IMG/VR virus record: IMGVR_UViG_3300027766_000001
Reading direction: 5' to 3' (one strand)
Source of the DNA: a virus
Taxonomy: Duplodnaviria; Caudoviricetes
Length of the DNA stretch: 64,000 nt
Shown here: piece after piece, positions 21,932 through 39,504 of the stretch
Layout of the letters: every line of letters starts with the position of its first letter
How positions within the stretch are numbered: position 1 is the stretch's first letter
Notes under the pieces: generated by a model
Seen by the model: the letters and a program-made list of their open reading frames with translations, nothing else
What the model was told of the DNA's origin: nothing
Databases searched by the model: none
Translations under genes and position numbers: made by a program

Positions 21932-22035
21932 GATCCATTTAACATGATGAAGCATACCAAGAGTACGTGAGCGGAACTTGATCCCAATCACATCTGTTTA
22001 TCCATGCGATGATAAACTACTCGAGGAAATTCATT

Positions 22036-22422
22036 ATGTTGAATAAAGAAGTGCTGTTAGCCCTGACCCCGTCTCTGACCGGCTTTAAAGATGAAGACCA
22101 TGACTACGGCCAGGTCTGGTATGACGAATGGTACTTCCGCGTGGAGAACCATGAACGCTACCATATCGTCTTTGGCTGGTATGAGTACGAGGATTACTCA
22201 GGACATTCCTATGTCTTTGGTTACGACAAGGAAGAGGATAAGTTCTTTGAAGTGGTCGCCTACCATTGCTCCTGCTACGGCTTGGAGGAAGGTTGGGATC
22301 CTGAGTACTTCGAATCAACAGCGTTACTGGCTGATTACCTGGCGAAGTTCAAGGGTAAAACCTACTCTTCAGGTCAGCTGACTTTGGTTGCGTTCTTGAA
22401 AGAGTGCGGAATCGAAGTATAA
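22036..22422 (+). CDS. Conserved small acidic phage protein
   Basis: 128 aa, GAGGA RBS, HCSCYGLE motif seen in a recurrent phage family. Confidence 0.75.
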   Translation: MLNKEVLLALTPSLTGFKDEDHDYGQVWYDEWYFRVENHERYHIVFGWYEYEDYSGHSYVFGYDKEEDKFFEVVAYHCSCYGLEEGWDPEYFESTALLADYLAKFKGKTYSSGQLTLVAFLKECGIEV

Positions 22423-22429
22423 CCGAATC

Positions 22430-22529
22430 GTCCGGATAGTTTAATAAGAACGGTGCGCCGGAATGCCCTTAAACTTACTAGGGGTGGTGTGCGCACAGGT
22501 GGTGGGGTCTGATCTCCCTCCGGACACCT
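22430..22529 (+). ncRNA. tRNA-like RNA A (expanded anticodon arm, degenerate T arm)
   Basis: 7-bp acceptor GTCCGGA/TCCGGAC-A-CC; T8A9 plus D-arm GTT-TAATAAG-AAC; GTGCGC/GCGCAC stem enclosing 32 nt; AGGT variable segment; weak GGGG/CTCC T-arm. Confidence 0.55.
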
Positions 22530-22538
22530 ATTCTCAAT

Positions 22539-22690
22539 GCTGGCACTAGCCAAACGGAAAGGCTTATACTTGGACGCTGAGTCGACGCAGTTATCAGCCA
22601 GGTATAGATTGCTCTGACAACACCATGTCATCATTAGACAATGTGATGTCATCATTATCGGGTTCGAGTCCCGGTGTGCTTCAGCTACCT
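22539..22690 (+). ncRNA. tRNA-like RNA B (expanded anticodon and variable arms)
   Basis: D-arm TA-GCC-AAACGGAAA-GGC; canonical T-arm ATCGGG-TTCGAGT-CCCGGT; acceptor GCTGGCAC/GTGC(TT)CAGC followed by T-ACCT; TATACTTGG/CCAGGTATA in place of the anticodon stem. Confidence 0.65.
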
Positions 22691-22691
22691 C

Positions 22692-22810
22692 TTTGTCGTT
22701 AGCCTGATGAGTCGCCGACATTAAACGCGACGAAACGTAGAACATGAAATTCATCCACTGAGGATTCACCACCTCGGTGCCCGCTAGGCATGTTCTATGT
22801 AGCAGTGAAG
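22692..22810 (+). ncRNA. Hammerhead ribozyme, type I, with pseudoknot
   Basis: CTGATGA 22704-22710; stem II GTCGC/GCGAC; GAAA 22732-22735; 12-bp stem III (A)CGTAGAACATG/CATGTTCTATG(T); GTA cleavage triplet ending 22801; stem I GC/GC; loop II CGACA complements TGTCG 22694-22698. Confidence 0.85.
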
Positions 22811-22975
22811 ATTCATTGACCAAGGTGTCTCGAACTTACACAGCCTTCTGCTCATCGGGTCACTCCCGGTACCAAGGTGAGCAGCGGGGTGTGGTAATTT
22901 GTCCGGTTACTGCGTCAAGGGCTGTAGGGGTATGGTCCTGGTTTTATCCTCAGATGTTCCATGTGAAAGCGGCTA

Positions 22976-23008
22976 AACCCCGGGGGTAACACCTCGGGGT
23001 TTATGCCG
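22976..23008 (+). terminator. Terminator closing the RNA island, TTTATGCCG class
   Basis: AACCCCGGGG-GTAACA-CCTCGGGGTTTATGCCG. Confidence 0.8.
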
Positions 23009-23025
23009 TTCTCGCAATGCAGATG

Positions 23026-23050
23026 ATTTCAAACCTATATTACACTGGTG
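23026..23050 (+). promoter_or_regulatory. Phage early promoter (TATATTAC)
   Basis: ATTTCAAACCTATATTACACTGGTG; core at 23036-23043. Confidence 0.7.
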
Positions 23051-23083
23051 ATGAATCCAACCATTTAAAATAAGGAGGTAATT

Positions 23084-23332
23084 ATGTTCATCAAAGCAAA
23101 ACTTTACAACGATGGTCAGAAGTCAACCAAGAGCGTGTTTATCAAAGCAAGCGATATCAGTGTGTGGTCGCAAAACGGCAGTAAAGATAACACGACCAAG
23201 CTGGAATTAATCAGTGGCTCGACAGTAACGATTGTCTGTGTTCCCGATAAGCTCGCGGGTTACATTCACGTGGCGTTGAACAAAGGCGATATCGAAGTAA
23301 ACGAAGACGGCGACGTCACGTATTTGAAATAA
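23084..23332 (+). CDS. Hypothetical early protein
   Basis: 82 aa, perfect TAAGGAGGT RBS, hairpin terminator at about 23336-23370. Confidence 0.8.
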   Translation: MFIKAKLYNDGQKSTKSVFIKASDISVWSQNGSKDNTTKLELISGSTVTIVCVPDKLAGYIHVALNKGDIEVNEDGDVTYLK

Positions 23333-27309: not shown

Positions 27310-28158
27310 TTAACGTTTCGGTGTTGCCCGACGAATTGCACGGTAACGACCCAGGGTGTTATTGTAGGCCGCTACACGCTGCCAACGTTCCCGGAAGAAG
27401 TCTTTGTAATTCTGTGCGGCATCCGAATACTCCATGATCACTTCACGGAACGCACCCAGTTCAACACCGCCCACTAACTGACCTTGGTCCAACTTGATAC
27501 GCAAGGTGTTATAGATGATCGCCTTGGTTGCCAGAACAGAGAGTTCTGAGAATGCCGGCCAGGAGTTGTTCTTGATGTTGTTCAGTTCCGCATCATTACT
27601 TAAGCGACAACGCAAGGTCAACTGGTTCGTGATGATCTGCGTCTCGTAGATGGCAATGGTGTTGAACCCAACGATTTCAATGTTGGCCAACTGAATTTCC
27701 ACCGCAGGTGCATAAGACTGCATCATCGACGTCATGCCGGCTGTGACCGCACCTTGATACCCATTCTGGTTACCGGAGCCGGAATACGTACCCACACCTG
27801 CACCCGGTGCACCGTACAGTGCATCTGGATAACCGTAGAGCAAAGACAGTATGGACGTGATGCGTAGACCACGTGTCTTTGCCTGGTCAACCCGAAACAC
27901 GGTGGTAAAGTTATCAGGTTTCCAATACTCTGTGTCATACAACGGAATGATGACTTCCTGACCCCCAAGCAGGTCACAGTCTTTTAACACTTTGGCATCA
28001 AAGACTTTGCTGCGCAACACTTCATTCATTGAAGTATTGTATACCTGCCTGGCTCCCGTAGAACTGTACAGCTGACGATCCCCAAGAAATGCCGCACGAA
28101 GTACTTCCATGGGGATTTCAAACAGGATGTCGGAGATGGCATTATCTATAGCACTCAT
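27310..28158 (-). CDS. Conserved chimallivirus protein divergent from phuZ (possibly virion)
   Basis: 282 aa from MSAIDNAISDIL (AAGAGG RBS); back-to-back with the tubulin gene. Confidence 0.6.
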   Translation of the reverse strand: MSAIDNAISDILFEIPMEVLRAAFLGDRQLYSSTGARQVYNTSMNEVLRSKVFDAKVLKDCDLLGGQEVIIPLYDTEYWKPDNFTTVFRVDQAKTRGLRITSILSLLYGYPDALYGAPGAGVGTYSGSGNQNGYQGAVTAGMTSMMQSYAPAVEIQLANIEIVGFNTIAIYETQIITNQLTLRCRLSNDAELNNIKNNSWPAFSELSVLATKAIIYNTLRIKLDQGQLVGGVELGAFREVIMEYSDAAQNYKDFFRERWQRVAAYNNTLGRYRAIRRATPKR

Positions 28159-28243
28159 GGCTACCTCTTTAGTAATGCAATACATACCCAACAATATATA
28201 TGTTGAACCTACACCTATCATAGAAATTAACCGGGAGTGCATC

Positions 28244-29227
28244 ATGTCCAAACGTATTACGCGTATTTTTGCTTGTGGTGGTGGTGCGATTAGCATTACT
28301 TCCGATCTGACCGACTACGTCAATGTCAAAGGTTTCTCTGACACCAAAGTCTCCCGTCTGGATACCTCGAACAAGAACATGACGGCAAACATGCCGGAGT
28401 CATCCAAGTTCGTGCTGACGGGCGCTGATGGCTCAGGTAAACAACGTGACCACAACTACAAACCGGTTGTGGCATCCATGGATAAAATCCTGGCTGAACA
28501 TCCGCCGGAAGATTACAACATCGTGATCTTTACAGCAGGTGGCGGTTCTGGTTCTGTCATTGGCCCGGTACTGGTCGGTGAGCTGTTGAAACGTAAAACC
28601 CCAGTCATTGCACTGGTGATCGGTTCAATCGGCGATGAAACCCAGGCACAGAACTCCGTGAACACCCTGAAGTCACTTGCCGGTATTCAGCAGGCGAACA
28701 AAGTGCCGGTGGTCTTCTCCTACTTCGAAGTCAACCAGCACAACAGCCAGGCCGATGTTGATCAGCAAGTCCGCAGCCTGCTGCCAAGCCTGCTGAACCT
28801 GTTGGACAGTGATAACACCATCATTGACAACAAAGACATCATCAACCTGCTGAACTGGACCAACGTCCGTAAAGAGATCCCGGCGCAGCTGGTTGCGCTC
28901 GAAGTCTTTATCGGTGCTGAAGATCTGGCGACCATCTCAGGTGCGGCACCGGTGACCATGGCGTCGATCTACCCGGATGCAGAACGTGAGTATCTGCCGG
29001 TGACCCCGTCTTATTCAACCGACGGTATCCGTTCAGAACTGTCACGTGAAAACCCCTACTACGGCAAAACCCTGCACTATGTGGTGCATGCTAAACCAGT
29101 GAAGCCTGCCTTCGATTCGCTGGAATCTGCTCTGCGTCGTATTCGCGATGCGCAGCGTTCTCAGCACACCATCGAGTCAGTGCTGGGTAGCGACGATAGC
29201 GTTGACAACAACGGTATGGTCGTTTAA
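28244..29227 (+). CDS. phuZ: Phage tubulin PhuZ/TubZ
   Basis: N-terminal FACGGGAI, GADGSGK, tubulin signature AGGGSGSVIGP, IIDNKDI T7-like loop; 327 aa. Confidence 0.93.
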   Translation: MSKRITRIFACGGGAISITSDLTDYVNVKGFSDTKVSRLDTSNKNMTANMPESSKFVLTGADGSGKQRDHNYKPVVASMDKILAEHPPEDYNIVIFTAGGGSGSVIGPVLVGELLKRKTPVIALVIGSIGDETQAQNSVNTLKSLAGIQQANKVPVVFSYFEVNQHNSQADVDQQVRSLLPSLLNLLDSDNTIIDNKDIINLLNWTNVRKEIPAQLVALEVFIGAEDLATISGAAPVTMASIYPDAEREYLPVTPSYSTDGIRSELSRENPYYGKTLHYVVHAKPVKPAFDSLESALRRIRDAQRSQHTIESVLGSDDSVDNNGMVV

Positions 29228-37376: not shown

Positions 37377-37452
37377 ATTACCATGGTAATTTCATTCGCG
37401 AATGTTAAATATAAGTGGCCCCGCCACTGAACACCAAAAAGGAACAAGCAGT

Positions 37453-39504
37453 ATGAAAACTCGTAACGACCAGCCGCAACCAGCTAACAACTCTCTGGCC
37501 GATGCACTGAACCAGGCGAACGCACAGCAGCAGCCTCAGGCACAACCGCAGGCGCAGCCACAACCTCAGGTTCAACAGCCGCAGGGTACTGCTCAGCAGC
37601 AGCCGATCTTCCAGCAGCCGCAACAGGGCTTCGCTGGTCAGGCGCCGCAGCAGGATGGCCAGGATCGTAACTCTAAGATCTTCGGTCTGAACAACCGCAT
37701 GTCGCGTACCTTCTCTTCTCAGACCTATTCTGAGAACTTCAAGATCGCGAACGAAGCGGTGCAGGAATTCTGCAAACCGTACGAAGGTGATGGCTTCAAC
37801 CAGACCTTCTTCGTAATCCCACTGCAGGACCAGAACCTGCACTGTGCTGCACTGATCTACGTCATGGCTATCAGCCAGTCCGCTTACGGCGTGTACACCT
37901 ACATGCTGGAAAACACCGGTAGCCCGCTGAAGCCGCTGGTAGGTAACGACCAGTTCACTGGCGAGCGCTATGAGCTGCCGCGCATGACCGGTTCTCAGTA
38001 CGATGATATCTACTGGGGTGCCGTGAAGGGCGCAGTAATCCGTCATCTGAAACTGCAGAACAACTCTGCTGTCCAGATCATGGAAGCTGGCGCGGGTGTT
38101 ATCCATGCGGAAATGGATTGGAAAGACGGTGGCGCAATCGGTCGTCTGCTGAACAACGCAGAAAACGCCGTGTACGCTTACGCGAACCGCATCTCTGGCT
38201 ACAAGATCGAAGAGCCGCTGAACCTGGCAACTGCGATCAACCCGCTGGTTGACCGTCTGTCCGCTGGTTTCAACTTCAATCCGCAGCCTCTGATTACGGC
38301 TGATGGTCAGCCGATGCGCAACGACGTAGAGATCAAACTGACCGTGTCTTCTGAAGGCAACGTGCAGGTACAGAACTCTGAGCCGTTCACTACCGTTCAC
38401 GGTTACGTGGAACTGGTAAGCGCAGGTCCGCAGCCGGTCATGATCCCGAACGGTTACGGTCAGATGATGCAGGCGCCGCAGCGCTACTACCCGCAGCTGG
38501 CAATCACTGCCGTTGACCAGGGTATCTTCGACGCAGAAGCACCGGAGTTCCAGGTGCTGGGTCTGTACGTAGCCACCCTGTTGCTGGAAAACAACAACTG
38601 GATGAATGCGTTCGCACCACGTATGGTCGGCGGTGTTGATATCAACGATATCGGCGCACTGAACTACGAACTGCGCATGGGCGTGGATCCGCAAGATCCT
38701 AACGCGCGTCCGAAGAAGATCGATACCAAAACGCACGAGTTCAACAACAACGCACTGCAGCAGCTGCTGAGCCAGGCGTGCTTCCCGAACATGTCCGTAG
38801 TCATGGACATCGAAGAAACTGGTCACCGTAACTGGGTGAACTCCATGTTCCTTCAAGCGGGCGGTATCCCGGGTTCTAACGCAACCATGCTGCCGCAGGA
38901 CGGCCGTCTGGCGCACGAAGCAGTTATCGCTGCTGCGAACAACCTGACCAATGGCGAGTTCAGTAAGTTCTTTACTGACACTACCAAACTGATCACTATC
39001 CGTGACGGTTCTCGTATCCAGGGTGGTTACTACCTGAGCGACGATGGTAAGCGTCTGGACGTTCGTAACGTTGACCTGGTAGCAGTACTGAACTTCCTGG
39101 GTGAATCTGATCCGCGTCGCGTTGAAGAATGGAAAATGATCTGTTCTTCTACCTCTGGCCTGTCTGGTCCGAAACGCATCGCACTGCGTCAGCAGTTCCT
39201 GCAGACTATCCTGGGTGCATCGTACGTGCAGAAATGCTACTACGAGCGCGTCATGATTTCCAACGACTTCCTGGCCGCACTGCGTTCTGCAATCATCGCA
39301 GCCGGTGTTCAGGTTCGTCCGGAGAACATGTCTAACCAGTACAACGCCATGTCTTACGGCATGCCGCTGGCCGCACAGTATGGCTTCAACACCCATACCG
39401 CGTCTTCGCTGCAGGCTGCAGGCTACGGTCAGCTGGATCAGCAGGGTCGTGTCGTACAGTTCGGTAACTACCGTACTCCGTTCGGCCACTTCAACGTCCA
39501 GTAA
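37453..39504 (+). CDS. chmA: Chimallin, major phage nuclear shell protein
   Basis: 683 aa; extremely optimised codons; immediately upstream of the nvRNAP beta-prime gene and two genes from the DNA polymerase (phiKZ gp54 synteny); Q/P-rich N-terminal extension. Confidence 0.85.
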   Translation: MKTRNDQPQPANNSLADALNQANAQQQPQAQPQAQPQPQVQQPQGTAQQQPIFQQPQQGFAGQAPQQDGQDRNSKIFGLNNRMSRTFSSQTYSENFKIANEAVQEFCKPYEGDGFNQTFFVIPLQDQNLHCAALIYVMAISQSAYGVYTYMLENTGSPLKPLVGNDQFTGERYELPRMTGSQYDDIYWGAVKGAVIRHLKLQNNSAVQIMEAGAGVIHAEMDWKDGGAIGRLLNNAENAVYAYANRISGYKIEEPLNLATAINPLVDRLSAGFNFNPQPLITADGQPMRNDVEIKLTVSSEGNVQVQNSEPFTTVHGYVELVSAGPQPVMIPNGYGQMMQAPQRYYPQLAITAVDQGIFDAEAPEFQVLGLYVATLLLENNNWMNAFAPRMVGGVDINDIGALNYELRMGVDPQDPNARPKKIDTKTHEFNNNALQQLLSQACFPNMSVVMDIEETGHRNWVNSMFLQAGGIPGSNATMLPQDGRLAHEAVIAAANNLTNGEFSKFFTDTTKLITIRDGSRIQGGYYLSDDGKRLDVRNVDLVAVLNFLGESDPRRVEEWKMICSSTSGLSGPKRIALRQQFLQTILGASYVQKCYYERVMISNDFLAALRSAIIAAGVQVRPENMSNQYNAMSYGMPLAAQYGFNTHTASSLQAAGYGQLDQQGRVVQFGNYRTPFGHFNVQ

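Follow-up and report, generated by a model that had tools for sequence, protein, structure and literature searches.

The window analysed here, a stretch of 64,000 nt from a virus of the Caudoviricetes (IMG/VR record IMGVR_UViG_3300027766_000001), encodes chimallin, the nuclear-shell protein, and a PhuZ tubulin, as well as several split RNA-polymerase beta subunits, a DNA polymerase, and a large terminase, and on its gene content it can be assigned to a nucleus-forming jumbo phage. A gap of ~660 nt between ORFs (22423-23083), which is non-coding in annotated relatives too, contains a complete hammerhead motif that is read directly from the sequence on the plus strand (22694-22805). The neighboring genes and a tRNA-Tyr, located 1.6 kb upstream of the ribozyme, are all carried by the same strand. 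The ribozyme is one module of a conserved non-coding RNA locus of ~600 nt (Table 1). The ORF just upstream of this locus (22009-22422) matches PHROG 8792, a family of unknown function, and has no Pfam domain; it also has a weak match to the integrase-labeled phrog_21421 (E = 3e-11), and an integrase would not be expected in a lytic jumbo phage that forms a nucleus.

Table 1. Coordinates of the ribozyme, the neighboring RNA modules, and two phage-nucleus genes in the window.
Feature	Position	Strand	Remarks
tRNA-shaped RNA A	22430-22529	+	consensus fold of five phages
tRNA-shaped module B	22539-22690	+	alignment, MFE fold, and sequences; structure partly checked
Pseudoknot 5′ strand, UGUCG	22694-22698	+	partner is CGACA of loop II
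Spacer and stem I 5′ strand, UUAGC	22699-22703	+	
Core C3-A9, CUGAUGA	22704-22710	+	
Stem II, 5 bp, GUCGC/GCGAC	22711-22715 with 22727-22731	+	stem II with loop II, 22711-22731
Loop II, CGACAUUAAAC, 11 nt	22716-22726	+	pseudoknot 3′ strand, 22716-22720
Core G12 A13 A14 A15.1, GAAA	22732-22735	+	
Stem III, 12 bp	22735-22746 with 22789-22800	+	includes A15.1-U16.1 and one G.U
Stem III loop/insert, 42 nt	22747-22788	+	
Hairpin in stem III insert, 8 bp	22756-22779	+	CACUGAGG (22756-22763) with CCUCGGUG (22772-22779)
Conserved single-stranded CGCUAGG in stem III insert	22782-22788	+	
Cleavage triplet GUA	22799-22801	+	
Stem I 3′ strand, GCAG	22802-22805	+	
Conserved structured RNA downstream of the predicted cut, ~170 nt	22802-22969	+	consensus fold of five phages
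Long terminal hairpin, 39 nt	22970-23008	+	consensus fold
TATATTAC motif	23036-23043	+	three copies in the window: 16266, 23036, 37360
PhuZ tubulin gene	28109-29227		5 kb downstream of the ribozyme
Chimallin gene	37402-39504	+	15 kb downstream of the ribozyme

Two tRNA-shaped units precede the ribozyme. Briefly, RNA A consists of a 7-bp acceptor stem (GUCCGGA/UCCGGAC), a 4-bp D-like arm, a T-like arm, and an ACC end, and the anticodon arm is replaced by a long two-part arm capped by a 7-nt loop, AACUUAC. Its consensus fold comprises 31 pairs, 12 of them with compensatory changes, and neither ARAGORN nor Rfam calls a tRNA at 22430-22529. The AACUUAC loop does not vary in six jumbo-phage lineages, and free covariation is seen in the stem below it; if the loop is taken for that of an anticodon arm, CUU (Lys-like) would be exposed, with A in place of U33. 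It is pure speculation that this loop could be an anticodon-nuclease decoy or a binding site. Module B contains a canonical T arm (GGGUUCGAGUCCC, 22661-22673) and ends ~3 nt before the pseudoknot strand of the ribozyme; it is present in the window, in Erwinia phage pEa_SNUABM_48, and in the IMG/VR contig L003, and is absent in Salmonella phage SA002 and in the contig L036. The segment GACGCUGAGUCGACGCAG of module B (22575-22600) is invariant in the three sequences that carry the module and, because it contains GUCG and CGAC, that is, both strands of the ribozyme pseudoknot, it could compete with the tertiary contact of the ribozyme.

The conserved RNA downstream of the predicted cut consists of a small GAC/GUC hairpin and a four-way junction, the latter formed by a closing helix and three hairpins, namely a long one, GUAAUU/GGUUAC, and one of 9 bp. 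Its consensus fold from the five phages contains 62 pairs, of which 14 show compensatory changes, and a coding segment is ruled out because the indels in the alignment are not multiples of three. The downstream RNA probably ends with the long hairpin that follows, which departs from a textbook intrinsic terminator in that its U-run lies within the stem; a simple terminator scan makes no call there. Pairing of the first 7 nt of the 3′ product with 22907-22913, which is seen in the MFE fold of the window, is not established: the partners shift or differ in the relatives, and the consensus fold lacks this helix. The TATATTAC motif, which may be a phiKZ-type early promoter, occurs just after the terminal hairpin, and another copy is located 35 nt upstream of the chimallin gene. 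Transcription of the next unit (ORF 23084-23332) is probably initiated from the copy at 23036. Furthermore, the hairpin and TATATTAC recur as a cassette at a second, distant site in related genomes, and this cassette is probably a phage promoter with a preceding terminator.

The original prediction, which had been made from the window sequence, named a type I hammerhead with all conserved core nucleotides in order, a 5-bp stem II, a 12-bp stem III, and a GTA cleavage triplet, and each of these is found on the plus strand by direct reading. The first five bases of loop II are the exact complement of the 5′ flank, as had been claimed for CGACA and TGTCG (22716-22720 and 22694-22698, respectively). 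Stem I is short, with C22703-G22802 and G22702-C22803 as its only contiguous pairs, and the extension suggested earlier holds as well, because U22700-A22804 and U22699.G22805 can be added when A22701 is bulged. A22735 and U22800 are paired (15.1-16.1), and A22801 occupies position H17 of the hammerhead core. The two ends of the motif exit via stem I, and stems II and III are both hairpins, which is the type I topology. The 42-nt loop III does contain a hairpin of its own (8 bp, 22756-22779), and the large stem III insertion of which it is part is real and partly conserved in relatives. An extended distal stem I (UCUU/AAGA), which is not conserved, and an anti-Shine-Dalgarno-like reading of the loop of the stem III insert, which is not conserved in relatives, were both discarded. 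On the basis of hammerhead geometry, scission is predicted between A22801 and G22802. A hammerhead cut leaves a 2′,3′-cyclic phosphate on the upstream RNA and a 5′-OH on the downstream RNA.

Sequence comparison indicates that the ribozyme is conserved in at least five other jumbo-phage lineages. A BLAST search with 22400-23100 identified the Erwinia phages pEa_SNUABM_48 and pEa_SNUABM_37 and the Salmonella phage SA002, jumbo phages of 288-294 kb, at 68-72% identity, and the whole ribozyme is conserved in the alignment with these relatives. A pattern scan added L003, a 104-kb IMG/VR contig that is identical to the 282-kb metagenome contig L043 over the compared ribozyme region (about 210 nt), and L036, a complete 273-kb jumbo contig, together with L038. 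A short BLAST search extended the set by 16 Agricanvirus records, including Ea35-70, RAY, and Simmy50. The orthologues of pEa_SNUABM_48 and pEa_SNUABM_37, SA002, two IMG/VR jumbo contigs, and Agricanvirus occupy the same position in the same non-coding gap. In the Agricanvirus orthologue (L049; Ea35-70, 2505-2655), core and pseudoknot are retained, stem I measures 5 bp, and a stem III of 12 bp encloses a large insert; stem II is imperfect, with a mismatch and a bulge (GGCGCC/GGCAC) in 16/16 records. Ea357_200A, annotated as a "hypothetical protein," lies inside the non-coding locus of Ea35-70 and is unlikely to be a real gene. One copy of the ribozyme is present in each of the four related records that were searched (pEa_SNUABM_48, SA002, and the contigs of L003 and L036); the second places returned by BLAST in related genomes, considered as candidate second copies, are the terminal hairpin and TATATTAC cassette instead. 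Finally, a pattern composed of the core, stem II, and loop II led to L040-L048 and L050-L052, members of a wider phage subfamily in which the stem III hairpins are compact. The search pattern for these compact members fixed the core and most of stem II, and the conservation of those bases among them follows from the pattern.

The ribozyme is supported by covariation. Twelve distinct ribozymes were tabulated in hand-curated registers that include stems I and III; because the MAFFT alignment of the 12 is reliable for the 5′ 46 columns only, the formal count covers the pseudoknot and stem II. In these two helices 99.2% of the cells are paired, none of 500 shuffles reached the observed covariation, and the pairing collapses when the partners are slid against each other. 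In the curated table, the pseudoknot has its full 5 bp in 11/12 and stem II is perfect in 12/12. Pair 5 of the pseudoknot is U-A in four ribozymes, A-U in three, C-G in three, G-C in one, and mismatched in one, and pair 3 of stem II is divided equally between C-G (6/12) and U-A (6/12). All 12 aligned homologues have NGUCG upstream of the core, and the first base of this strand covaries with base 5 of loop II; since the pseudoknot strand was absent from every search pattern, its occurrence at a fixed distance provides independent support. The sequences of stems I and III change from lineage to lineage with few exceptions, and the pairing is kept. Stem I is found as GC/GC, UGC/GCA, CUGC/GCAG, UAAA/UUUA, GUCU/AGAC, and UAAUAA/UUAUUA, and as ACUCC/GGAGU in Ea35-70; in stem III, pair 15.5/16.5 is A-U in the window and G-C in the group of pEa_SNUABM_48, SA002, and L003, and L052 has an A-U pair at 15.2/16.2. 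L050 combines a stem II of GCUGC/GCAGC with a GUU cleavage triplet. Within the core, the only position that varies among the 12 aligned homologues is N7, which is mostly U and is C in pEa_SNUABM_48, L041, and L042. N7 is the one position of the hammerhead core that is free to vary. The family therefore presents three covarying helices, with the 5-bp pseudoknot as the tertiary contact that connects the side of stem I to that of stem II, and the predicted type I topology with a loop II pseudoknot is supported by the comparison of homologues and not by one sequence alone.

Chance occurrence and folding energy were examined on the window. A descriptor requiring CUGANGA, a stem II of at least 4 bp abutting GAAA, a stem III of at least 4 bp, UH, and a stem I of at least 2 bp matches one site on the two strands of the 64 kb, which is the ribozyme at 22694-22805, and has no match in 300 dinucleotide-preserving shuffles. 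The MFE fold calculated with ViennaRNA recovers stems II and III and the inner hairpin (z = -3.05); in this pseudoknot-free fold, part of CUGAUGA is tied up in a weak hairpin. The explicit hammerhead fold has an energy of -34.2 kcal/mol, to which the pseudoknot duplex would contribute about -4.5, against -38.7 for the unconstrained MFE, and according to these calculations the active fold is energetically competitive.

The original prediction had also looked to Infernal and the Rfam hammerhead models for corroboration, and this check gave a negative result. At the gathering score, the window and 12 related loci yielded tRNAs only and no hammerhead. At E <= 10, the sole ribozyme match in the window is a partial one to Hammerhead_3 (RF00008) at 22690-22741, with 30.3 bits (E = 2.6e-4) against a cut-off of 48.5 bits and in the wrong, type III register; the matches of RF00008 to the ribozyme subfamily are likewise partial, with 22-30 bits, and in the wrong register. 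RF00163, the type I model, gave no match in five related phage records at E <= 10, and its curated gathering threshold of 34 bits was not reached. Further matches at E <= 10 are false positives, obviously so for the snoRNA models, and in the case of mir-4872 (22958-23026, minus strand, 31.9 bits, E = 1.3e-4) caused by the long terminal hairpin. Our own covariance model, R1, built from two compact members, recovers every family member with 33-102 bits and found nothing convincing in 29 chance loci; it misplaces the 3′ half of copies with a long stem III, and its alignment was left out of the pair counts. Because the conservation and covariation support a ribozyme, the failure of Rfam reflects a gap in the models and does not speak against the ribozyme; as RF00163 does not cover the subfamily, the missing match is weak evidence against membership in the hammerhead class.

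The Hammerhead_3 alignment would, if taken literally, imply a type III hammerhead with UCUUUGU/ACGUAGA as stem III and a cut after C22697 (GUC). This assignment is extremely improbable: stem I would be reduced to 2 bp closed by 2 nt, a hairpin that is sterically impossible, the proposed stem III is not kept in L003, pEa_SNUABM_48, or L040, the GUCG of the supposed cleavage site behaves as a pseudoknot strand in its covariation with loop II, and the score is far below the cut-off for membership. We also consider it very improbable that the site contains no ribozyme and that a protein-binding RNA, a DNA site, or the constraint of a minus-strand ORF coincidentally resembles a hammerhead. The absence of an Rfam match above threshold is compatible with this explanation, as is a 149-aa minus-strand ORF (22374-22823) that overlaps the site; however, the ORF is interrupted in relatives and without a PHROG match, the descriptor finds nothing in the shuffled sequences, the covariation tracks exactly the four hammerhead helices with a core varying at N7 only, and the same module recurs in unrelated phage contexts. 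That the ribozyme belongs to a real hammerhead family is highly probable. The window copy could nevertheless be a crippled or very slow member of this family, in which a spacer deletion mis-registers the pseudoknot and the locus gives mostly uncut RNA. The spacer between the pseudoknot and the core measures 5 nt in the window copy and 6 nt in 14 other curated members, and because of this shortening by one nucleotide stem I has only two contiguous pairs, compared with 3-8 elsewhere; nearest-neighbor energies are unfavorable to these two pairs, stem I adds no stability in the energy model, and indels around a hammerhead pseudoknot can reduce the rate by orders of magnitude (PMC3088659). On the other hand, the core, stem II, stem III, and the 5-bp pseudoknot are intact, the bulged A22701 permits two extra pairs in stem I, natural hammerheads tolerate a short stem I when a tertiary contact is given, and the rest of the locus is well kept. 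A crippled copy is thus rather unlikely, and cleavage by the window copy would still be likely, at odds lowered by the short spacer, the 2-bp stem I, and the reported effect of indels.

The surroundings of the other family members bear on the function of the ribozyme. In three independent contigs (L040, L045, and L050), a distance of 0-3 nt separates the CCA of a tRNA from the pseudoknot strand; this tRNA is tRNA-Leu(UAA) in L040 and L045 and another tRNA in L050. In the jumbo phages, the ribozyme comes after a tRNA-shaped RNA. In total, ~9/15 family members directly follow a tRNA or a tRNA-shaped RNA; L044 and L047 have no upstream tRNA. Downstream of the ribozyme, L040 (772-1742) carries a conserved structured leader of ~220 nt and then an Amidoligase_2 (PF12224) gene, L044 and L045 have leaders and ORFs that are homologous to those of L040 by sequence, and in L041 a tRNA is found farther on.

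The explanation that we favor, and hold to be reasonably likely as a whole, is a hammerhead that cuts a downstream RNA from tRNA-shaped RNAs. The segment 22694-22805 would be a type I hammerhead self-cleaving ribozyme in which a 5-bp Watson-Crick pseudoknot between loop II and the bases just 5′ of stem I takes the place of the usual loop-loop contact and keeps stems I and II next to each other, and in which stem III bears the 42-nt accessory insert. It would be transcribed from the plus strand within the ~600-nt non-coding RNA locus and would cut itself between A22801 and G22802. The upstream product would then comprise the tRNA-shaped RNAs followed by the ribozyme as a 3′ trailer with a 2′,3′-cyclic phosphate, and the downstream product would be a folded RNA of ~205 nt, extending from 22802 to about 23008, with a clean 5′-OH start. 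Catalysis, co-transcription with the flanking modules, and the purpose, a downstream 5′ end formed without host RNases, are those elements of the scheme that we infer. A type I hammerhead stays on the upstream fragment, and for this reason the downstream RNA would be almost free of ribozyme sequence. From the ribozyme being retained upstream and from the varied downstream partners, the simplest reading is that of a portable transcript-separating module, which would detach the RNA following a tRNA or tRNA-like gene and provide it with a 5′-OH without host RNases. Release or insulation of the downstream RNA is the most likely main role, at odds that we judge to be about even.

The ribozyme may instead serve the upstream RNA, which is tRNA-shaped here and a true tRNA in other phages, with the cyclic-phosphate trailer blocking 3′ exonucleases or feeding RtcB-type ligation or repair. 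The frequent position after a tRNA or tRNA-shaped RNA, with CCA at 0-3 nt in three contigs, and the type I geometry, which keeps the ribozyme on the upstream product, agree with such a service; however, the cut cannot produce a mature tRNA 3′ end, because it lies 50-110 nt beyond the CCA, cleavage by theta ribozymes, the proposed processors of tRNA 3′ trailers, takes place at the 5′ edge of the ribozyme, the 20 ORFs scanned, nine of which lie at 16-31 kb around the locus, include neither an RNA ligase nor a repair gene, and L044 and L047 have the ribozyme without an upstream tRNA. Service to the upstream RNA is for these reasons deemed unlikely. A bolder reading would be a dedicated self-processing non-coding RNA operon of nucleus-forming jumbo phages, composed of non-decoding tRNA-shaped RNAs, a hammerhead, and a four-way-junction RNA, in which the ribozyme processes RNA inside the phage nucleus, from which host RNases are presumably excluded, and the 5′-OH RNA and the tRNA mimics have infection roles of their own. 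For example, they may serve as decoys against host defences that target tRNAs, or they may regulate export or translation. We consider such an operon doubtful, and processing inside the phage nucleus as the selective reason is speculation; were it true, a hammerhead of a bacterial virus would gain a defined biological job.

The finding is significant in that one ribozyme keeps a fixed position within a multi-module non-coding RNA locus that is conserved and covaries and whose downstream product is clearly delimited. Since the locus is present in cultivable nucleus-forming jumbo phages (the Erwinia phages Ea35-70, RAY, and pEa_SNUABM_48 and the Salmonella phage SA002), a concrete test is possible, and the questions that can be addressed are whether the cut takes place in infected cells, what the ~205-nt RNA does, and whether processing by a ribozyme is of importance if a phage nucleus encloses transcription. 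Furthermore, the Rfam hammerhead models miss the subfamily, so that it is overlooked in pipelines for phage annotation.

The ribozyme class, the pseudoknot solution, and the association with phages are already known. Perreault et al. (2011, PMC3088659) described and tested pseudoknot-stabilized hammerheads of all three types from bacteria, prophages, and phages, and documented the pseudoknot contacts that the original prediction had invoked. The present ribozyme shares with them the catalytic core, the three-helix junction, a Watson-Crick pseudoknot of at least four pairs linking the stem I and stem II sides, and the location in phage intergenic regions. Unlike in those hammerheads, it is the segment 5′ of an open stem I that serves here as the pseudoknot partner, hardly any variation occurs in stem II and loop II (GUYGC-CGACNNUAAAN-GCRAC), the stem III insert of the jumbo-phage lineages measures 42-57 nt and is structured, and the ribozyme is a single copy in a multi-module non-coding RNA locus in place of several copies flanking small ORFs. 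The Rfam families Hammerhead_1 (RF00163) and Hammerhead_3 (RF00008), which belong to clan CL00010, have the same core consensus, and the type I topology of RF00163 matches, although neither model recognizes the subfamily at its curated threshold. A review notes the persistent link of hammerheads to phages and considers their role in bacteria and phages still open (PMC6155905); our literature search turned up no publication that reports a hammerhead in a jumbo or nucleus-forming phage. Drum RNA was also considered for a connection with hammerheads, which the Drum RNA paper does not support.

Two further groups of phage RNAs offer a comparison. The GOLLD and ROOL large ornate RNAs of phages and prophages are often found near tRNA genes. 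They resemble the present locus in being large, conserved, and structured, in not coding for protein, and in having no assigned function (for ROOL, see Weinberg et al., 2017, PMC5737381); unlike them, the locus is modular, consisting of tRNA-shaped units, a ribozyme, and a four-way-junction RNA, and includes a self-cleaving ribozyme. No match to GOLLD or ROOL was obtained in the window at the gathering score or in 22300-23200 at E <= 10, and no Rfam family passes its threshold anywhere in the non-coding RNA locus. Theta ribozymes, which are minimal HDV-like ribozymes (Kienbeck et al., bioRxiv 10.1101/2023.06.13.544163), are likewise small self-cleaving ribozymes beside tRNA genes of Caudoviricetes phages. 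They differ in their HDV-like fold with its nested double pseudoknot, for which 22300-23200 gave no Rfam match at E <= 10, and in their proposed processing of tRNA 3′ trailers, whereas the type I hammerhead described here would cut at its own 3′ edge, 50-110 nt past the end of the tRNA or tRNA-like RNA, and free the RNA downstream. The placement of theta and hammerhead ribozymes beside tRNA genes suggests RNase-independent processing of transcripts from phage tRNA regions.
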